Source of the DNA: a virus
Lineage: Duplodnaviria > Heunggongvirae > Uroviricota > Caudoviricetes
Length of the DNA: 8,083 nucleotides
IMG/VR virus record: IMGVR_UViG_2695420847_000016
Location: 1 to 8,083 of that record
Reading direction: 5' to 3' (one strand)
Of the stretch, positions 1 to 8,083 are shown piece after piece; the stretch's first letter is position 1; each line of letters starts with the position of its first letter. The notes below the pieces were generated by a model, which was not told the DNA's origin, did not search any database, and saw only the letters and a list, made by a program, of their open reading frames with translations. The position numbers and the translations under genes were made by a program.

Positions 1-500
1 CGCGTCGTTCTCTGGGATTACCGGCGGAAAAAATCCGCTCCGTATACCGTGAAAGCGACATCATACCGGGAGAACAGACCGCCACCAGCATACTGAAGCA
101 GCGCACAAAAAATATTGCGCTACCGCCTCACACCCACCAGCAACAGAACCCACCACAGGAAAAGACGGTGGTCAGCATTGCCGTTGATCCGGAGTCTCCG
201 GAATCCTTCATGAAACGACCTAAACGTCGCCTCTGGGTAAATGAGAAATACACACGCTGGGTAAAGACACAGCCGTGTGCGTGTTGTGGTAAGCCAGCGG
301 ACGATCCTCATCATCTGATTGGTCATGGTCAGGGTGGAATGGGAACAAAATCCCACGATATTTTCACGCTACCGCTGTGTCGGGAGCATCACAACGAGCT
401 TCATGCGGATCCGCTGGCGTTCGAAGAAAAGCATGGTTCCCAGGTTGATTTAATTTTTCGTTTTCTTGATCACGCTTTTGCAACCGGCGTGCTCGGGTAA
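1..500 (+). CDS. Phage zinc-finger protein of the YdfU/YbcO (DUF968/DUF1364-like) type; 5' end lies outside the window
   Basis: The frame is open from base 3 to TAA at 498-500; the ORF track shows only the internal GTG at 168. The C-terminal part has a Cys/His pattern (CACCGKP...HH...GTK...CREHH). The gene sits directly upstream of rusA, as in lambdoid nin regions. Family assignment is from motif and context, not a search. Confidence 0.6.
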   Translation, partial: RRSLGLPAEKIRSVYRESDIIPGEQTATSILKQRTKNIALPPHTHQQQNPPQEKTVVSIAVDPESPESFMKRPKRRLWVNEKYTRWVKTQPCACCGKPADDPHHLIGHGQGGMGTKSHDIFTLPLCREHHNELHADPLAFEEKHGSQVDLIFRFLDHAFATGVLG

Positions 501-512
501 AAGAGGTTACTG

Positions 513-884
513 ATGCGTATAGAGTTTGTTTTGCCTTACCCGCCGACGGTGAACACCTACTGGCGACGTCGTGGCAGCACATATTTTGTATCAAAAGCCG
601 GTGAGCGTTATCGCCGGGCTGTGGCGCTTATTGTTCGCCAGCAGCGGCTGAAATTAAGCCTGTCCGGACGGCTGGCAATAAAAATTATTGCAGAACCACC
701 GGATAAGCGCCGCCGTGACCTGGACAACATTCTGAAAGCACCGCTGGATGCGCTGACGCATGCGGAAGTGCTCATTGATGACGAGCAGTTTGATGAAATC
801 AATATTGTGCGCGGTCAGCCTGTGCCAGGTGGACGGCTGGGCGTGAAGATTTACGAAATCAGAGGTGGTAACGATGGCGCGTGA
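513..884 (+). CDS. rusA: RusA Holliday-junction resolvase (crossover junction endodeoxyribonuclease)
   Basis: 123-aa ORF with AAGAGG 5 nt upstream of ATG 513. The protein has the RusA-type acidic core ([20 protein letters not shown]) and length matching E. coli RusA. Confidence 0.88.
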
Positions 885-1245
885 TATCCAGATGGTTCTT
901 GAGCGATGGGGGGCATGGGCAGCAAATAATCATGAAGATGTAACATGGCCCTCGATAGCTGCTGGTTTTAAAGGATTAATCCCGACTAAAGTGAAATCAC
1001 GTCCTCAGTGTTCTGATGATGACGCCATGATAATTTGTGGTTGTATGGCACGATTAAACAAGAATAATCAGTATTTGCACGATTTGTTGGTGGATTATTA
1101 CGTAGGTGGAATGACATTTATGGCTCTTGCACGTAAGCATAGATGTTCTGATGGGCTTATTGGTAAAAGGCTTTATAAAGCGGAAGGTATTATTGAAGGA
1201 ATGCTTATGGCTCTGAATGTCCGGTTAGATATGGATATGCGGTAG
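874..1245 (+). CDS. Late-gene antiterminator Q, short (about 125 aa) Q family as in DLP12-type prophages
   Basis: ATG 874 is preceded by AGAGGTGG (861-868) and overlaps the rusA stop (ATGGCGCGTGA). The sequence [25 protein letters not shown]...CGCMARL matches my memory of QuuD-like Q proteins. The track start GTG 865 is probably too far upstream. Confidence 0.8.
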
Positions 1246-1336
1246 GGATATATAGTGATGAGGGTTATGTTTTCTGTGTTTATAATTAACATGTTTATTT
1301 TTTGATGGTCATGTATTGTGGAAGGTAGATAAAATG

Positions 1337-1365
1337 TTGCCTGGTGAATTGAAAATATTGATAAT
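1337..1365 (+). promoter_or_regulatory. Candidate sigma70 promoter (TTGCCT-N17-GATAAT) in the AT-rich spacer between Q and the CPBP gene
   Basis: Hexamer match with 17-bp spacing, about 30 nt upstream of the CPBP ribosome-binding site. It could be the PR'-equivalent late promoter or a cargo promoter. Sequence match only. Confidence 0.25.
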
Positions 1366-1396
1366 CAATCTTCATCATTAAATAAAAGGAGTGCTT

Positions 1397-2215
1397 ATGT
1401 GGATTGTGTTAGTACTGTCACTGTCAACTCTCAGTTGGCATAAGGTAGTGGCTTTTTCATTGTTGACGGTGTCTGTTGTCCTGGCTGTGCTTAATGATAT
1501 TATTGATTGGTCGGTGTTATTTTTTGTTGCTACAATCGTTTTTTTTATTATTTTGAAGTTCAACTGGAAATATAACGCCTGGGCTAAATCTATATATGAA
1601 GTTGGCATAGTTTTATCAGCCATAGCATTATCTTTCCATCTATGGCCAGGGTTTCACAATCCTGTAGTGCTAAATTCTGTTACTGTTGGCCCTCAAAGTA
1701 CTCCCTATACAATGTATTTTAATTTTGATAAAGCGCTGGTGCCATTTTTGTTAGTCCTGTGTACATCTTCTTTGTTTAAAAAAGAAGTAAAATCAGAAGT
1801 GTCTTTGTGGAAGTGGGGGGCTCTGTCGCTCTCTGTTCCTCTTATCCTGTTTTTGGCTGTTTTTTTTGGTGGATTAAAGCCAGAGATTCATTTTCCTGAG
1901 TGGTTGCCAGAGTTTATATTGGCTAATTTGTTTTTTGTGTCTCTGGCAGAGGAATCATTATTTAGAGGGTATATTCAATCACGGCTATCAGAAGTAACGT
2001 CTCCATTGGTTGCATTAATTGTGGCGGCTTTGTTGTTTGGTTTTTATCACTATTCAGGTGGTGCTTTACTTGTATTATTTGCCACGTTATCTGGTGTTGT
2101 GTATGGATTGTCATGGATGTGGAGTGGGCGTTTGTGGGTTGCCACCCTTTTCCATTTTGGTTTGAATCTGTGTCACTTGTTATTCTTTACCTATCCATTT
2201 TTAAAACATAATTGA
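1397..2215 (+). CDS. CPBP-family (CAAX protease / Abi domain) intramembrane metalloprotease
   Basis: AAGGAG (1386-1391) lies 5 nt before ATG 1397; the track start GTG 1391 is 2 codons upstream. The protein is a multi-pass hydrophobic protein with all three CPBP motifs: EExxxR (LAEESLFRGY), FxxxH (FGFYHY) and HxxxN (HFGLNL). The gene is markedly AT-rich compared with the rusA/Q backbone. Confidence 0.8.
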   Translation: MWIVLVLSLSTLSWHKVVAFSLLTVSVVLAVLNDIIDWSVLFFVATIVFFIILKFNWKYNAWAKSIYEVGIVLSAIALSFHLWPGFHNPVVLNSVTVGPQSTPYTMYFNFDKALVPFLLVLCTSSLFKKEVKSEVSLWKWGALSLSVPLILFLAVFFGGLKPEIHFPEWLPEFILANLFFVSLAEESLFRGYIQSRLSEVTSPLVALIVAALLFGFYHYSGGALLVLFATLSGVVYGLSWMWSGRLWVATLFHFGLNLCHLLFFTYPFLKHN

Positions 2216-2295
2216 TTTTTTCTATGGTTTTAAATTTATAAGACTGAAAAATAGCAGGACGTGACATTTGCATGAAAAATATGCACGGCAAAGCA

Positions 2296-2309
2296 TTTAC
2301 GTACGTAAA
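2296..2309. promoter_or_regulatory. Perfect 14-bp palindrome TTTACGTACGTAAA, candidate operator
   Basis: Exact reverse-complement symmetry, in the intergenic region between the CPBP gene and the small winged-helix ORF. Function is inferred only. Confidence 0.2.
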
Positions 2310-2356
2310 AAATCAGGTATGCTGTTAAGAGTGGTTATTTCGCCGCATAGCTTGAC

Positions 2357-2378
2357 CCCGCCTCTGAGCGGGTTTTTT
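2357..2378 (+). terminator. Intrinsic terminator downstream of the CPBP gene
   Basis: CCCGC-CTCTGA-GCGGG hairpin followed by TTTTTT. Confidence 0.5.
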
Positions 2379-2501
2379 GTGCCCGCAAAGTAGCGCAGTG
2401 CGTTAAATGTGCTGGTAGTTATTAATACAGGTCTTTCAGCTTGCTGGCTTTTTCGGCAAGAGTTATTGGTGTGTCACGTTAACCGGAAAGGGTAAAAAGA
2501 C

Positions 2502-2699
2502 ATGCTGAAACAGCAGGATATGACAGAAACCGCCAGAGTTGTGTTTGATGAATTAAGCGTCACCGAACCGGCGACAGTCGGGGAGATTGCGCAGAATACT
2601 TACCTTTCACGCGAACGCTGCCAGTTAATACTGACCCAGCTTGTTATGGCGGGTCTGGCAGACTATCAGTGCGGTTGTTACAGACGCCTTCAGTCCTGA
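2502..2699 (+). CDS. Small winged-helix DNA-binding protein, PapI/FaeA-like (65 aa)
   Basis: ATG 2502 has a GGAAAGGG purine tract upstream. The segment TVGEIAQNTYLSRERCQLILTQLVMAGLA resembles the PapI/FaeA recognition helix region. Only the last ~49 nt are repeated in the second module (4573-4621), so the intact gene is unique to module 1. Confidence 0.5.
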   Translation: MLKQQDMTETARVVFDELSVTEPATVGEIAQNTYLSRERCQLILTQLVMAGLADYQCGCYRRLQS

Positions 2700-2770
2700 A
2701 GGCTTTTTTATTTGTGGTAAATGGGCGGCTGGTGGGTGTTAGCGGCACCTGTCAGTCCTTTGCTTATGTG

Positions 2771-2801
2771 TTGATGATAATTTACCTTTTGGGGCTATAA
2801 T
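2771..2801 (+). promoter_or_regulatory. Candidate promoter for the AraC-family gene (TTGATG ... TATAAT, 19-bp spacer)
   Basis: Perfect -10 hexamer TATAAT at 2796-2801 and a TTGATG -35-like hexamer at 2771-2776. Spacing is suboptimal. The same motif is conserved in copy 2 at 4690-4720. Confidence 0.25.
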
Positions 2802-2836
2802 TGAACTAACCAATTGCTAATGAAAGTAAAATTATA

Positions 2837-3550
2837 ATGGTTGTTGTCTGTTCAGTTATCATGGTTTGCTCCCCAATTAATATTTTTCTTGAAAAGGATA
2901 CGTTGTCACTTAAGCCCGGCTCAGTCGTTCTGGCCACCAAATGCATCAGGGCGCTTTTCCTTATGCATTATGGCAAAGTTAAAATTTTCGATATAAACCA
3001 TTCCATAGTAAGTCAATATCTGGAAATTCAGCATAAGCTGACAAGAACTCATCTGACTGACGTTCCGCTTTATCTGTCACTGGAACCCAACAACCCTGCG
3101 TTGGCTGAGGCTTTAATTACCAGCCAGAGATTTTCCGGAGATACCACGGATATGTTTCTTATGATGGCATGCCTGTCGCTGTTTGAATCAGATGAACGGA
3201 TATTATTATTTTTAAGTGGATGTTTATCCAGTATAAGTACCAAAGTCAGGGCGATAATTCAGACAGATATATCAGCAAGCTGGACGCTTGGTGCGATTGC
3301 GTTACGCCTGCATATGAGTGAGAGTTTGTTAAAGATAAAACTGAAAAATGAAGGGCACATGTTCAGTCGCTTGTTGCTGGAAGAGCGGATGCGTGTTGCT
3401 GTGAATATGTTATGTTCCCGGCATGGATATGGACAGGCTGTAGCAGAAAAATGCGGTTATTCAAGCTGGTCCTACTTTATTTCTGTATTTCACCGCTATT
3501 ATGGCTTCCCGCCAGACAGATATGTATCCAGGCAAGGGCTTGATTATTGA
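2837..3550 (+). CDS. AraC/XylS-family transcriptional regulator (prophage-encoded, paralog 1)
   Basis: 237-aa ORF with a C-terminal double HTH typical of AraC family (WTLGAIALRLHMSESLL ... YGQAVAEKCGYSSWSYFISVFHRYYGFPPDRY). AT-rich. The start could instead be ATG 2861. Confidence 0.8.
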   Translation: MVVVCSVIMVCSPINIFLEKDTLSLKPGSVVLATKCIRALFLMHYGKVKIFDINHSIVSQYLEIQHKLTRTHLTDVPLYLSLEPNNPALAEALITSQRFSGDTTDMFLMMACLSLFESDERILLFLSGCLSSISTKVRAIIQTDISASWTLGAIALRLHMSESLLKIKLKNEGHMFSRLLLEERMRVAVNMLCSRHGYGQAVAEKCGYSSWSYFISVFHRYYGFPPDRYVSRQGLDY

Positions 3551-3578
3551 TTTTCATCTGATTATTATTTTTTGACCC

Positions 3579-3654
3579 GGCCCTTTAGCTCAGTGGTGAG
3601 AGCGAGCGACTCATAATCGCCAGGTCGCTGGTTCAAATCCAGCAAGGGCCACCA
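3579..3654 (+). tRNA. ileZ: tRNA-Ile2 (anticodon CAU, lysidine type), 76 nt with encoded CCA
   Basis: Cloverleaf built by hand: acceptor GGCCCTT/AAGGGCC, D-stem GCTC/GAGC, anticodon loop CTCATAA, T-loop TTCAAAT. Close to E. coli ileX rather than elongator tRNA-Met. The symbol is by analogy with the Stx-phage tRNA cluster. Confidence 0.8.
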
Positions 3655-3661
3655 TCACATA

Positions 3662-3738
3662 CCGCCATTAGCTCATCAGGAAAGAGCGCCAGCTTTCGAA
3701 GCTGGTTGCGCGGAGTTCGGGTCCCCGAAGGCGGTCCA
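3662..3738 (+). tRNA. argN: tRNA-Arg (anticodon UCG), copy with stem and T-loop irregularities
   Basis: Anticodon loop TTTCGAA between the CCAGC/GCTGG stem. It carries an A-A mismatch in the acceptor stem, an A-C mismatch in the T-stem, and T-loop TTCGGGT (G at the usually conserved A58). It may be impaired. The symbol is by analogy only. Confidence 0.6.
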
Positions 3739-3751
3739 TTATCTGTATCCT

Positions 3752-3828
3752 GCGTTGTTAGCTCAGCCGGACAGAGCAATTGCCTTCTAAGCAATCGGTC
3801 ACTGGTTCGAATCCAGTACAACGCGCCA
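3752..3828 (+). tRNA. argO: tRNA-Arg (anticodon UCU), canonical copy
   Basis: Acceptor GCGTTGT/ACAACGC, anticodon loop CTTCTAA, T-arm ACTGG-TTCGAAT-CCAGT, encoded CCA. Resembles E. coli argU-type tRNA. Confidence 0.85.
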
Positions 3829-3842
3829 CACTTATTTTCCCT

Positions 3843-3868
3843 GGCTCGCTTTTGCGGGCCTTTTTTTT
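3843..3868 (+). terminator. Intrinsic terminator after tRNA cluster 1
   Basis: GGCTCGC-TTTT-GCGGGCC hairpin (one G-U pair) followed by a run of 8 T. Confidence 0.6.
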
Positions 3869-3933
3869 AAATATCTCACAATTCAGGCGGTTGACTGTTG
3901 TCTGGTTTGCGGGGAGTTTGTTAAAAGAAACTG

Positions 3934-4041
3934 GCATGGTGAATCCCCCTGTGCGGAGGGGCGATCAGCAACCAGGTATATGGGATAATCGCGGATTCAG
4001 GTGCTGATACTGAATTCACCGGGAGGCACCCGGCACCATGC
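3934..4041. repeat. 108-bp dyad-symmetric element, copy 1 (100% identical to 6548-6655)
   Basis: Base-by-base comparison shows the two copies are identical. Ends are inverted repeats GCATGGTG...CACCATGC, with internal inverted repeats GGTGAAT/ATTCACC and CCCCT/AGGGG. Flanking sequences are only loosely similar. Confidence 0.8.
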
Positions 4042-4101
4042 TTTGCCACAAAAGTGTTGTTTCTGTTTTTCTCAAACTATCATCGTTATCCCTTTATTTC
4101 C

Positions 4102-4128
4102 GGCTGCGCATGGCGTGGCCTTTTTTTT
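4102..4128 (+). terminator. Intrinsic terminator upstream of the nanS-p fragment
   Basis: GGCTGCGC-ATG-GCGTGGCC hairpin with two wobble pairs, followed by 8 T. A related hairpin recurs at 6800-6825. Confidence 0.45.
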
Positions 4129-4214
4129 ACGACCAGCCACTGGCAGATGGCCATCCTGTAATTTGATTCCGGTTCCGGCTTTTTAACTCTGTTCCTGTAC
4201 ACGGGAGAAATTCG

Positions 4215-4739
4215 ATGTCGATTAAACATTATGATGTTGTCAGGGCGGCGTCGCCGTCAGACCTTGCGGAAAAGCTGACACATAAACTGAAAGAGGGCTG
4301 GCAGCCGTTTGGTAGTCCGGTGGCCATAACCCCTTATACCCTGATGCAGGCGATTGCAGCAGAAGGTGATGTGGTGGTCAGTGGTGCAACTGAGCCGGAG
4401 TGGTACTACGTCATCGTACTGGCCGGGCAGTCCAATGCCATGGCTTACGGTGAAGGGCTTCCGCTGCCGGATTCATACGATGCTCCGGATCCGCGTATTA
4501 AACAGCTGGCGCGCCGCAGTACAGTGACGCCGGGTGGGGCTGCCTGCAGATATAACGATATTATTCCGGCACGGGTCTGGCAGACTATCAGTGCGGTTGT
4601 TACAGACGCCTTCAGTCCTGAAGGCTTTTTATTTGTGGTGAATGGGCGGCTGGTGGGGGGGCGACACCTGTCAGTCCTTTGCTTATGTGTTGATGATAAT
4701 TTACCTTTTGGGGCTATAATTGAGCTAACCAATTGCTAA
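4215..4739 (+). pseudogene. nanS: 5' fragment (about 119 codons) of a nanS-p-type sialate O-acetylesterase gene fused out of frame to the edge of module copy 2
   Basis: The N-terminal sequence is near-identical to the ORFs at 6922 and 7548 up to ...RYNDIIPA (through nt 4570). From 4573 the DNA is the repeat also found at 2651 onward, so the ORF tail (RVWQTISAVV...) is read-through of sequence that is noncoding or in another frame in copy 1. Confidence 0.6.
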
Positions 4740-4755
4740 TGAAAGTAAAATTATA

Positions 4756-5469
4756 ATGGCTGTTGTCTGTTCAGTTATCATGGTTTGCTCCCCAATTAAT
4801 ATTTTTCTTGAAAAGGATACGTTGTCACTTAAGCCAGGCTCAGTTGTTCTGGCCACCAAATGCATCAGGGAGCTTTTCCTTATGCATTATGGCAAAGTTA
4901 AAATTGTCGATATAAGCGAATCCGTCGTAAGTCAATATCTGGAAAGTCAGCATAAGCTGACGAGGACTCGTCTGACTGACATTCCGCTTTACCTGTTGCT
5001 GGAACCCAACAATCCTGCGTTGGCTGCGGCTTTAATTACCAGCCAGGGATTTTCCGGAGAGGCCACGGATATGTTTCTTATGATGGCCTGCCTGTCTCTG
5101 TTTGAAACAGATGAACGGATGTCATTGTTTTTAAGTGGATGTTTATCCAGCATAAGTGCCAAAGTCAGGGCGATAATTCAGACAGATATATCAGCAAGCT
5201 GGACGCTTGGTGCGATTGCTCTACAGTTGCATATGAGTGAGAGTTTGTTAAAGACAAAACTGAAAAATGAAGGGGGCATGTTCAGTCGCTTGTTGCTGGA
5301 AGAGCGGATGCGTGTTGCTGTAAATATGTTATGTTCCCGGCATGGATATGGACAGGCTATAGCAGAAAAATGCGGTTATTCAAGCAGGTCCTACTTTATT
5401 TCTGTATTTCACCGCTATTATGGCTTCCCGCCAGACAGATATGTATCCAGGCAAGGGCTTGATTATTGA
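4756..5469 (+). CDS. AraC/XylS-family transcriptional regulator (paralog 2)
   Basis: 237 aa, same length as paralog 1, with 23 amino-acid differences by manual alignment. 17 of these fall in the N-terminal 135 residues. Confidence 0.8.
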   Translation: MAVVCSVIMVCSPINIFLEKDTLSLKPGSVVLATKCIRELFLMHYGKVKIVDISESVVSQYLESQHKLTRTRLTDIPLYLLLEPNNPALAAALITSQGFSGEATDMFLMMACLSLFETDERMSLFLSGCLSSISAKVRAIIQTDISASWTLGAIALQLHMSESLLKTKLKNEGGMFSRLLLEERMRVAVNMLCSRHGYGQAIAEKCGYSSRSYFISVFHRYYGFPPDRYVSRQGLDY

Positions 5470-5497
5470 TTTTCATCTGATTATTATTTTTTGGCTC

Positions 5498-5573
5498 GGC
5501 CCTTTAGCTCAGTGGTGAGAGCGAGCGACTCATAATCGCCAGGTCGCTGGTTCAAATCCAGCAAGGGCCACCA
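5498..5573 (+). tRNA. ileZ: tRNA-Ile2 (anticodon CAU), second copy
   Basis: Identical in sequence to 3579-3654. Confidence 0.8.
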
Positions 5574-5582
5574 TATTACATA

Positions 5583-5659
5583 CCGCTATTAGCTCATCGG
5601 GACAGAGCGCCAGCCTTCGAAGCTGGCTGCGCGGGGTTCAAGTCCCCGATGGCGGTCCA
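5583..5659 (+). tRNA. argN: tRNA-Arg (anticodon UCG), canonical copy
   Basis: Acceptor CCGCTAT/ATGGCGG (one G-U pair), anticodon loop CTTCGAA, T-arm CGGGG-TTCAAGT-CCCCG fully paired, encoded CCA. Confidence 0.75.
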
Positions 5660-5672
5660 TTATCAGCATCAT

Positions 5673-5749
5673 GCGTTGTTAGCTCAGTCGGACAGAGCAA
5701 TTGCCTTCTAAGCAATCGGTCAGTGGTTAGACTCCACTACAACGCGCCA
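5673..5749 (+). tRNA. argO: tRNA-Arg (anticodon UCU), copy with atypical T-loop
   Basis: Same acceptor and anticodon arm as 3752-3828, but the T-arm is AGTGG-TTAGACT-CCACT. The stem change is compensatory; the loop has A in place of the conserved C56. Confidence 0.65.
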
Positions 5750-5762
5750 CACTTATTTTCCA

Positions 5763-5786
5763 GGCTCGCTTCGGCGGGCCTTTTTT
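5763..5786 (+). terminator. Intrinsic terminator after tRNA cluster 2
   Basis: GGCTCGC-TTCG-GCGGGCC hairpin followed by TTTTTT. Confidence 0.6.
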
Positions 5787-5918
5787 GTATCTGCGCCACG
5801 CCCGGCGCATATCAACCACAGAGCCTTTCGGGGGTGAGCTTACGGAGTGGTCAGTGTGACTTTCTCTGTGGGCAGATCGCTCCCGGGCGTTGGCTCACCC
5901 ACCCAAAGGAACGTCACG

Positions 5919-6350
5919 ATGTTTGGAATCTTCAAAAAGAAAACCCGCAGAGCGGCAGCGGAAATTAAAAAGTTTGAGAAACGCGATCTGGCACAGGCGG
6001 TGATTAACGCTGCATACCTGGTGGCCTATGCAGATGGTGAATGCGAGGCATCCGAGAAAGCGAAGATCGAACAGGTCTTACGTAATCAGCCTGCGTTGTC
6101 TGCGTTTACCTCGGAAATTAATGCGATTAGCGCAACCATTATCGGTCAGCTGGATACCAATTTTAAAATTGGTCGTCGTGCCGCGTTACGCGAGATTGAG
6201 GATGTGAAACACGATACGCGTGAAGCGGAAGATGTGCTGGATGTGGCGGTGGCCATTGCGGAGGCAGACGGCGAAATTGAGCCGGAAGAGCGCAAGGTGC
6301 TGGAAGAGATTGCCGGTGTTCTGGGTCTTCGTCTGGAGAATCACCTGTGA
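5919..6350 (+). CDS. TerB-family (tellurite-resistance TerB-like) protein, 143 aa
   Basis: ATG 5919 has AAAGGA 8 nt upstream; the track start GTG 5847 is probably not used. Two acidic DG-containing repeats (AYADGECEASEKAKIEQVL and AEADGEIEPEERKVLEEIAGVLGL) match the layout of plasmid TerB as I remember it. Confidence 0.7.
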   Translation: MFGIFKKKTRRAAAEIKKFEKRDLAQAVINAAYLVAYADGECEASEKAKIEQVLRNQPALSAFTSEINAISATIIGQLDTNFKIGRRAALREIEDVKHDTREAEDVLDVAVAIAEADGEIEPEERKVLEEIAGVLGLRLENHL

Positions 6351-6514
6351 CGGTAAAACTGCGCCTGGCTGTGGCTGCACTCCTGCTGTTTCTGGTGGTG
6401 ATGGTGGATCTCACCAGCAGAATCATGTCGGTGCTGGCGGATGGGGTGCTGGTCTGCGGCATTGTGGTATTGCTGTGGCCGGTGATAAAAAGAAACAGCC
6501 TGCATAATGCTTGA
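6347..6514 (+). CDS. Hypothetical small hydrophobic protein (about 55 aa, two predicted membrane-spanning segments), translationally coupled to the TerB-like gene
   Basis: Not in the ORF track. GTG 6347 overlaps the TerB stop (GTGA) with GGAGA 7 nt upstream; an alternative start is ATG 6401. The frame runs to TGA 6512-6514 and encodes ...LRLAVAALLLFLVVMVDLTSRIMSVLADGVLVCGIVVLLWPVIKRNSLHNA. Confidence 0.35.
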   Translation: MTVKLRLAVAALLLFLVVMVDLTSRIMSVLADGVLVCGIVVLLWPVIKRNSLHNA

Positions 6515-6547
6515 TTTTTTTGTTTGCTGTTTATTAAAAACACTTCT

Positions 6548-6655
6548 GCATGGTGAATCCCCCTGTGCGGAGGGGCGATCAGCAACCAGGTATATGGGAT
6601 AATCGCGGATTCAGGTGCTGATACTGAATTCACCGGGAGGCACCCGGCACCATGC
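6548..6655. repeat. 108-bp dyad-symmetric element, copy 2 (100% identical to 3934-4041)
   Basis: See copy 1. It lies 267 bp upstream of the nanS-p start at 6922. Confidence 0.8.
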
Positions 6656-6680
6656 AAGAAAAAGAATGTGCATGCAAACA

Positions 6681-6706
6681 TGCCCCTCTCCGGAGGGGCA
6701 TTTTTT
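6681..6706 (+). terminator. Intrinsic terminator
   Basis: TGCCCCTC-TCCG-GAGGGGCA hairpin (8 bp) followed by TTTTTT. Confidence 0.6.
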
Positions 6707-6712
6707 ATGGGT

Positions 6713-6737
6713 AAAAAATGCCCGAATGGGTTCGGGC
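6713..6737 (-). terminator. Possible minus-strand intrinsic terminator facing the one at 6681-6706
   Basis: GCCCGAA-TGGG-TTCGGGC hairpin with AAAAAAT on its 5' side on the + strand, which is a T-run on the minus strand. No minus-strand gene is evident to its right. Confidence 0.3.
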
Positions 6738-6799
6738 AATAGCATGAGATACTGATATTGTTGTGTTGTTATCGTGTGGATTTTAACCAGGGTTTATCA

Positions 6800-6825
6800 G
6801 GCTGCGCAACTGCGTGGCCTTTTTT
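6800..6825 (+). terminator. Intrinsic terminator in the nanS-p leader
   Basis: GGCTGCGC-AACT-GCGTGGCC hairpin followed by TTTTTT; a diverged homolog of the hairpin at 4102-4128. Confidence 0.5.
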
Positions 6826-6866
6826 CATTTCTTGGGCTGTAGTCCCCGTGTGTCATTCAGGCTTCC

Positions 6867-7492
6867 GGACTACAGCCCACTCCATATCTGATTTAATACA
6901 CTATCCCGGCCGGGAGGAATAATGACATTTAAACATTATGATGTTGTCAGGGCGGCGTCGCCGTCAGACCTTGCGGAAAAGCTGACACACAAACTGAAAG
7001 AGGGCTGGCAGCCGTTTGGTAGTCCGGTGGCCATAACCCCTTATACCCTGATGCAGGCGATTACAGCAGAAGGTGATGTGGTGGTCAGTGGTGCAACTGA
7101 GCCGGATTGGTACTACGTCATCGTACTGGCCGGGCAGTCCAATGCCATGGCTTACGGTGAAGGGCTTCCGCTGCCGGATTCATACGATGCTCCGGATCCG
7201 CGTATTAAACAGCTGGCGCGCCGCAGTACAGTGACGCCGGGTGGGGCTGCCTGCAGATATAACGATATTATTCCGGCCGACCACTGCCTGCATGATGTGC
7301 AGGATATGAGTACGCTGAATCATCCGAAGGCAGACCTGAGCAAAGGGCAGTACGGCTGTGTCGGCCAGGGCTTACATATTGCCAAAAAACTGCTTCCGTA
7401 TATCCCGAATAACGCGGGGATCCTGCTGGTACCATGCTGTCGTGGTGGTTCGGCATTCACCCAGGGCGCGGAGGGGACATTCAGTGCGGACA
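6867..7492. repeat. Tandem duplication unit 1 (626 bp: 55 bp of leader plus the first ~190 codons of nanS-p)
   Basis: The sequence from 6867 recurs from 7493 with a constant offset of 626 bp to the window end. At least four single-base differences were seen, for example at 7205/7831, 7250/7876, 7268/7894 and 7396/8022. Confidence 0.85.
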
Positions 7493-7548
7493 GGACTACA
7501 GCCCACTCCATATCTGATTTAATACACTATCCCGGCCGGGAGGAATAA
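6922..7548 (+). pseudogene. nanS: nanS-p-type sialate O-acetylesterase, N-terminal 190 codons ended by the tandem-duplication junction (208-codon ORF)
   Basis: GGGAGGAATA lies before ATG 6922. The protein has a DUF1737-like N-terminus and the start of an esterase domain with a GQSN motif (VLAGQSNAMAYGEG). After ...TFSAD the frame runs into the duplicated leader (RTTAHSISDLIHYPGREE, stop). Confidence 0.55.
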
Positions 7549-8083
7549 TGACATTTAAACATTATGATGTTGTCAGGGCGGCGTCGCCGTCAGACCTTGC
7601 GGAAAAGCTGACACACAAACTGAAAGAGGGCTGGCAGCCGTTTGGTAGTCCGGTGGCCATAACCCCTTATACCCTGATGCAGGCGATTACAGCAGAAGGT
7701 GATGTGGTGGTCAGTGGTGCAACTGAGCCGGATTGGTACTACGTCATCGTACTGGCCGGGCAGTCCAATGCCATGGCTTACGGTGAAGGGCTTCCGCTGC
7801 CGGATTCATACGATGCTCCGGATCCGCGCATTAAACAGCTGGCGCGCCGCAGTACAGTTACGCCGGGTGGGGCTGCATGCAGATATAACGATATTATTCC
7901 GGCCGACCACTGCCTGCATGATGTGCAGGATATGAGTACGCTGAATCATCCGAAGGCAGACCTGAGCAAAGGGCAGTACGGCTGTGTCGGCCAGGGCTTA
8001 CATATTGCCAAAAAACTGCTCCCGTATATCCCGAATAACGCGGGGATCCTGCTGGTACCATGCTGTCGTGGTGGTTCGGCATT
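7493..8083. repeat. Tandem duplication unit 2 (partial; runs off the window)
   Basis: See unit 1. Confidence 0.85.
7548..8083 (+). CDS. nanS: nanS-p-type sialate O-acetylesterase (prophage paralog), 3' end outside the window
   Basis: ATG 7548 overlaps the TAA of the truncated copy (TAATGA). The reading frame is open to the window end, and the sequence is ~99% identical to 6922-7457. Confidence 0.7.
   Translation, partial: MTFKHYDVVRAASPSDLAEKLTHKLKEGWQPFGSPVAITPYTLMQAITAEGDVVVSGATEPDWYYVIVLAGQSNAMAYGEGLPLPDSYDAPDPRIKQLARRSTVTPGGAACRYNDIIPADHCLHDVQDMSTLNHPKADLSKGQYGCVGQGLHIAKKLLPYIPNNAGILLVPCCRGGSA

Follow-up and report, generated by a model that had tools for sequence, protein, structure and literature searches.

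The 8,083-bp window analysed here (IMG/VR record IMGVR_UViG_2695420847_000016) covers late-region sequence between the antiterminator gene Q and the esterase gene nanS-p of lambdoid prophages, the interval in which Shiga toxin (Stx) phages carry stxAB. We conclude, with a probability of about 0.87, that the window consists of three contigs (1–4570, 4572–7491 and 7493–8083) joined by single-N gaps, and that these stem from late regions of Stx-negative lambdoid prophages, two or three paralogs residing in a single attaching-and-effacing-type Escherichia coli. A first-pass annotation had described positions 1246–6921 as one stx-equivalent slot with alternative cargo. This interval crosses the N gap at 4571 and merges the full cargo zone of one prophage with most of that of a second; the sequence features are real and were correctly recognised, and the "alternative cargo in one slot" is a composite from two N gaps.

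Comparison with the public record showed that the whole window is the complete contig CYAO01000067.1 of the draft assembly GCA_001283385.1 and that the two differ by 2 mismatches only, at 4571 and 7492:

4571–4571, no strand: scaffold gap 1, where the window has A for the N of the public record
7492–7492, no strand: scaffold gap 2, where the window likewise has A for a recorded N

These are the exact sites at which nanS-p breaks off and upstream sequence restarts. When the window was compared with itself, positions 2650–3869 matched 4572–5789 (93.7% identity over 1.2-kb units), 6867–7457 matched 7493–8083 (99.3% identity with 4 mismatches, the first 336 nt being exact) and 4202–4570 matched 6911–7277 (97.3% identity). 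Every piece starts or ends within an exact repeat of 59 to 336 nt: the 59 nt from 2650–2708 recur exactly at the start of piece 2, and the last 170 nt of the nanS-p fragment of piece 1 are identical to 7108–7277. Because N stands at both junctions, the presence of two AraC genes, two tRNA triplets and three nanS-p starts is best explained by two or three paralogous prophages that were chained by the scaffolder; the single N may have been written by a scaffolder of the SSPACE type. The duplicated units are paralogs rather than the product of a fresh duplication, since the 1.2-kb units have diverged by 6.3% and 4 sites separate the second nanS-p copy (b) from the third (c).

Neither join was found elsewhere: in 5,426 complete E. 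coli genomes, the GTDB species representatives and IMG/VR, the junction at 4571 was absent and the one at 7492 had no contiguous match. The pieces themselves are well represented. Piece 2 (4572 to 7491/2) has a single contiguous match of 99.9% in the complete genome of strain Z1323HEC0108, piece 1 matches complete genomes at 99.4%, and at least 80% of the window is covered in 538 of the complete E. coli genomes. Rendering N as A created two spurious gap-crossing open reading frames (ORFs), 4215–4739 (174 aa) and 6922–7548 (208 aa), both of which are included as proteins in the existing gene calls for the contig; an exact-protein look-up of the 208-aa chimera returned zero matches. Both ORFs are artefacts. 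A single N shown as A thus suffices to make chimeric ORFs, and short draft scaffolds of repeated prophage modules can mimic novel "stacked cargo" loci. A real illegitimate recombination at the junctions, first considered on the strength of short similar motifs and one orphan A at each, was dropped, as both orphan bases are N in the record.

The claim that the window holds no stx-like ORF was borne out: tblastn with Stx1A, Stx1B, Stx2A and Stx2B from phage records found nothing better than E = 0.2 and 22 bits in any frame of the window. The landmarks Q, tRNA triplet and nanS-p are likewise all present, yet as two triplets and three truncated nanS-p 5' fragments, none of them intact. The features that delimit or occupy the position of stx are the following:

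3579–3828, + strand: tRNA triplet 1, ileZ (CAT), argN (TCG) and argO (TCT) (ARAGORN, Rfam; Sakai annotation ileZ1/argN1/argO1)
3870–3915, + strand: empty stx-equivalent site, at which the argO terminator abuts sequence found 3' of stx2B in Stx2a phages
3905–4077, + strand: STnc100-family small RNA (sRNA) gene lacking its 3' terminator hairpin (RF02076, 108.1 bits against a gathering score of 47)
5498–5749, + strand: tRNA triplet 2, ileZ-argN-argO (ARAGORN, Rfam), with a terminator at 5762–5781
5919–6350, + strand: TerB/TciA-like protein in the stx-equivalent site (PF05099, 59.1 bits; phrog_632; 139/143 residues identical to Sakai ECs_2190)
6347–6514, + strand: DUF3927/TciB-like small protein with a 4-nt overlap with TerB (PF13064; phrog_1470, E = 1.9e-28)
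6519–6712, + strand: full-length STnc100-family sRNA gene (RF02076, 142.7 bits, E = 2.1e-32; gathering score 47)

The region from argO to nanS-p was aligned for piece 1, Sakai Sp4, piece 2 and one Stx2a phage. Common to all four are argO with its terminator hairpin on the left (at 3843–3860 after triplet 1, according to a terminator scan) and the STnc100 core on the right; the two copies of this core in the window are 100% identical over 108 nt. In Sp4 and piece 1, TCACAATTCAGG..TTGAC follows directly after the argO terminator, and the same motif lies 3' of stx2B in the Stx2a phage. Judged from these shared flanks and this motif, the stx-equivalent site is only the argO-to-STnc100 interval, that is 3870–3915 in piece 1, where it is empty, and ~5790–6528 in piece 2, where it holds TerB and DUF3927. 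The empty junction occurs in 1,020 and the argO–TerB junction in 793 of the 5,426 complete E. coli genomes. Over the first ~25 nt 3' of the argO terminator (TATCTGCGCC...), the TerB cassette (5790–5815) and the region upstream of stx2 (Stx2a phage, locus L003, ~6490–6515) agree with each other but not with the empty site; sequence similarity suggests that the TerB and stx2 cassettes share a left-end linker.

The whole segment between the landmarks can therefore not be equated with the stx-equivalent slot: the first nanS-p fragment (4215–4570) lies inside it, and a gene for a CPBP intramembrane protease, a 65-aa ORF and a psr gene coding for an AraC-type regulator all lie upstream of the tRNAs, in separate sub-slots. 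Nor is the AraC regulator an alternative to the toxin, because phiSTEC1575-Stx2k has a Psr-type regulator and stx2AB together. In this phage (L010, 5121–7802) the 65-aa TrmB-like ORF, the Psr-family AraC regulator and the tRNA triplet are found directly upstream of stx2AB, and its Psr-type protein is 89% identical to PsrA of the window. The interval from Q to nanS-p thus comprises at least three independent sub-slots, a Q-proximal one, a pre-tRNA one and a post-argO one, the last being the stx position. The stretch between Q and the block preceding the 65-aa ORF (1246–2317 in the window, 5881–6700 in L007) is itself variable, with the CPBP gene in the window and Sp4, a WYL-domain protein and a small ORF in Z1323HEC0108, and nothing in Sp11 and PPyecE_EH1910.

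Several points weigh against the reading of the window as chained late regions of paralogous prophages with the gene identities and functions given here. The scaffolder chose this piece order, which implies that some read pairs linked the pieces and allows for an unusual real adjacency, and the contig was reported in 2 possibly independent samples. A consensus scan for PR' gave several AT-rich matches after Q (1306–1378) and none convincing before ~2318, and no Rfam match to a PR' transcript was obtained. ECs_2191, the Sakai counterpart of the second AraC gene, is presumably PsrB (Z2104), judging from prophage content and its 90% relation to PsrA, and the cargo functions discussed below, being taken from O157:H7 orthologs, are predictions for this strain. 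The order of the pieces and the report from 2 samples would also suit a real arrangement, in which illegitimate recombination stacked an Sp4-type module, an Sp11-type module and a 626-bp nanS-p repeat in tandem in one prophage and so left that phage with a pair of psr genes and a pair of tRNA triplets; recombination does take place in the late regions of prophages (PMC4104026, bioRxiv 10.64898/2026.05.13.724894). If true, this would be a direct snapshot of a moron hotspot accumulating payloads by duplication and not by replacement. We regard it as unlikely, given that both junctions are N and neither was sequenced, that it would need two non-homologous joins, independent of each other, in a stretch of 3 kb, each of which truncated nanS-p, that neither junction was seen in any other genome or phage searched, and that copies 6.3% apart do not point to a recent duplication.

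It is very unlikely, too, that the prophages were once Stx phages and had their stxAB deleted, instead of being relatives with different cargo. They share the 65-aa ORF, the tRNAs, STnc100 and nanS-p with Stx phages, and a Psr-type regulator co-occurs with stx2k; against this, the tblastn search of the window revealed no protein-level stx remnant, and the empty site is a clean junction that is conserved in as many as 1,020 complete genomes, alongside the TerB junction in 793. The sequence itself is neutral as to the direction of change, gain or loss. That the window belongs to a non-phage chromosomal island with phage-like genes is barely credible: structural and lysis genes are absent from the window itself, but every close relative lies within a full lambdoid prophage in which genes for integrase, replication, Q, lysis, terminase and tail are present. 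In line with the expectation of the first-pass annotation that lysis genes would follow, holin, lysozyme, Rz and terminase genes lie beyond nanS-p in all complete relatives, including the closest complete genomes; this is evidence by proxy, as the window is the entire contig. The notion of a relative of an Stx phage late region with exchanged cargo consequently holds insofar as the window shows a lambdoid late region of the stx-carrying type with other cargo and no toxin, and fails insofar as the cargo is the sum of two prophages.

Piece 1 (1–4570) is an Sp4-type module, which contains, besides the features given above:

1–500, + strand: 3' part of a DUF968 gene that is truncated where the contig begins (PF06147, E = 5.8e-58; counterpart Sakai ECs_1082)
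513–884, + strand: RusA Holliday-junction resolvase (PF05866, E = 1.1e-15)
874–1245, + strand: late-gene antiterminator Q (PF06530, E = 4.9e-52; 122/123 residues identical to Sakai Sp4 ECs_1084)
1397–2215, + strand: cassette coding for a CPBP (CAAX/Rce1-like) intramembrane protease (PF02517, 70.6 bits; 271/272 identical to Sakai ECs_1085)
2318–2500, + strand: non-coding block with an intrinsic terminator at 2357–2372, candidate tR' region (alignment and terminator scan)
2502–2699, + strand: conserved 65-aa phage ORF (phrog_331, E = 6e-37; also in Stx2a phage L003 and in Sp11)
2837–3550, + strand: psrA ortholog, AraC/XylS regulator (236/237 identical to the extended Sakai ECs_1087 ORF)
4215–4570, + strand: nanS-p 5' fragment (356 nt) at the end of the piece (PF08410, DUF1737)

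The Q-family antiterminator follows directly after DUF968 and RusA, as in lambdoid late regions. The CPBP cassette has a low G+C content (34–40%), and its translation shows the EExxxR (AEESLFR), FxxxH (FGFYH) and HxxxN (HFGLN) motifs of a CPBP glutamic protease. Homology to Stx2a phages begins at ~2323, close to the start of the non-coding block, which, with its terminator at 2357–2372, may include tR'. The block (2318–2500) is conserved among phages whose Q proteins differ in allele and length (123, 126, 185 and 273 aa), which would be unexpected if a Q-specific qut/PR' region lay inside it. The 65-aa ORF is possibly a TrmB-like winged-helix protein, the TrmB match reaching 17.8 bits against a cut-off of 25.6. 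The AraC-type proteins have C-terminal HTH_18/HTH_AraC matches and by their sequence belong with the Psr/PatE regulators. Piece 1 has only the terminator-less STnc100 copy and no AgvB gene according to Rfam.

Piece 2 (4572–7491) and piece 3 (7493–8083) additionally contain:

4572–4621, + strand: last 50 nt of a second copy of the 65-aa gene, a repeat of the piece 1 copy that is contiguous with the following genes in Z1323HEC0108 (99.9%)
4756–5469, + strand: psrB-type AraC regulator (234/237 identical to Sakai Sp11 ECs_2191)
6713–6774, − strand: gene of the anti-GcvB sRNA AgvB (RF02702, 96.5 bits against a gathering score of 56; 62/62 consensus match)
6922–7491, + strand: nanS-p 5' fragment (570 nt) at the end of piece 2 (PF08410, weak SASA; contiguous in Z1323HEC0108)
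7493–8083, + strand: piece 3, with 55 nt upstream of nanS-p and the nanS-p 5' part from 7548 (536 nt), probably a third paralog, repeating 6867–7457

The two AraC proteins of the window are 90% identical to each other, and the second is 91% identical to PsrA (ECs_1087). The TerB domain protein and the overlapping DUF3927 protein form a TerB/TciA-TciB cassette. The STnc100 and AgvB genes of piece 2 are convergent and abutting, just upstream of nanS-p. An intact nanS-p (DUF1737, full SASA and C-terminal domain, ~616 aa) is absent from the window, which holds the 356-, 570- and 536-nt 5' fragments only, and the SASA match of 18 bits falls short of the cut-off. Each of these genes runs off a contig end, so that its truncation is no sign of a pseudogene. 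The cargo list of the first-pass annotation was accordingly right about the CPBP protease, two AraC regulators and TerB; its winged-helix protein scores below the TrmB cut-off, and the second member of its "TerB-like pair" is the DUF3927/TciB-like protein. The repeat structure, the second tRNA triplet and the sRNA genes (two copies of STnc100, and AgvB) did not feature in it.

The modules are already known: they are near-identical to the long-characterised Sp4 and Sp11 regions of O157:H7 and occur in hundreds of complete genomes, and the moron site has been described (PMC4104026). Protein identities to Sakai Sp4 and Sp11 are 97–99%. Sp4 (ECs_1082 to ECs_1088) resembles piece 1 in carrying DUF968, RusA, Q, the CAAX/CPBP protease, the small ORF, psrA, ileZ-argN-argO and nanS-p, but differs in the stretch from the STnc100 core to nanS-p, where it keeps the STnc100 terminator hairpin that piece 1 lacks; moreover, the nanS-p copy of the window is cut by the contig end. 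The psrA gene is ECs1087 in Sp4 (ecs1087; PMC13502914) and z1789 on O island OI-50 in EDL933. Sp11 (ECs_2189 to ECs_2193), the pchB prophage, resembles piece 2 with its 65-aa ORF, psrB-type regulator, tRNAs, TciA/TerB, DUF3927 and nanS-p, and is near-identical to the prophage of Z1323HEC0108, to which piece 2 has 99.9% DNA identity. In Sp11 (L009, 29652–29904) only ileZ5 and argO5 are annotated and no argN, whereas piece 2 and Z1323HEC0108 keep all three tRNAs. The Q-proximal part of the piece 2 prophage lies outside the window.

Stx2a phages (Stx2_EH1910; Sp5/933W type) share with the window Q, the conserved block that contains the 65-aa ORF, the ileZ-argN-argO triplet, an STnc100-like block and nanS-p, and have holin and endolysin genes next; phiSTEC1575-Stx2k has the same landmarks except nanS-p, which is absent before its holin gene. 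The Stx2a phages and phiSTEC1575-Stx2k have their cassette boundaries where the window has them, at the argO terminator and at the STnc100 block, but stx2AB (plus iraM) stands where the window is empty or has TerB/DUF3927. Stx2_EH1910 and PPyecE_EH1910 carry a DNA methylase in place of psr, and their Q alleles differ from that of the window. Phage Evi (L011, 2382–5303) has the TerB/DUF3927 pair between its Q and holin genes, with no annotated tRNAs or nanS-p, which indicates that this cassette travels independently of the tRNA and nanS-p landmarks. Alternative cassettes thus occupy the same places in L003, L004, L007, L010 and L011, among them the Stx2a phage, Z1323HEC0108, phiSTEC1575-Stx2k and Evi.

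The alignments showed shared flanks and identical cassette boundaries with alternating contents. A terminator scan placed hairpins after the CPBP gene, the 65-aa ORF, argO and both sRNA genes, and a consensus scan found promoter-like elements upstream of both psr genes (2774–2801 and 4693–4720, each matching at 10/12 positions). We propose that the moron zone between Q/PR' and the lysis cassette holds self-contained cassettes with promoter-like and terminator elements of their own, separated by conserved linkers (the block that precedes the 65-aa gene, the tRNA/argO terminator, the core of STnc100 and the 5' end of nanS-p). Co-resident prophages would swap cassettes by homologous recombination in these linkers, and the payloads may be expressed in the lysogen from their own signals.

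Several of the payloads have known functions. The ileZ/argN/argO tRNAs supply decoding of the rare codons AUA, AGA/AGG and CGA/CGG, and NanS-p esterases release usable sialic acid. In O157:H7, PsrA and PsrB, for which an identity of 90% has been published, activate gadE/yhiF and hdeA, raise acid resistance and repress type III secretion encoded by the enterocyte effacement locus (LEE) (PMC10877973). AgvB acts as a sponge that antagonises GcvB, a core sRNA, and it promotes growth in bovine rectal mucus (PMC4104026). The genes for TerB and the sialate esterase are known to lie next to STnc100 and AgvB (bioRxiv 10.64898/2026.05.13.724894), and nanS-p is known in Stx and non-Stx prophages alike (PMC10462455). 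PADLOC gave no meaningful defence-system match for the CPBP, 65-aa, AraC, TerB and DUF3927 proteins. The moron site downstream of PR' with convergent sRNAs was described in 2014 for Sp3, 4, 5, 9, 10, 11, 15 and 17 (Tree et al., PMC4104026), and the window matches it without substantive difference, with cargo coding sequences and then, just upstream of a conserved phage ORF (nanS-p in this case), convergent sRNAs (STnc100 and AgvB). The window therefore adds one more strain's copies of a characterised virulence-regulatory hotspot comprising PsrA/PsrB, AgvB, STnc100, rare-codon tRNAs and NanS-p.

Finally, the 4 sites at which nanS-p copies b and c differ (7203, 7233, 7251 and 7395 in b, corresponding to 7829, 7859, 7877 and 8021 in c) are unevenly spread, three of them falling within 50 nt. 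The pattern is consistent with either a third paralog or patchy gene conversion among nanS-p copies.

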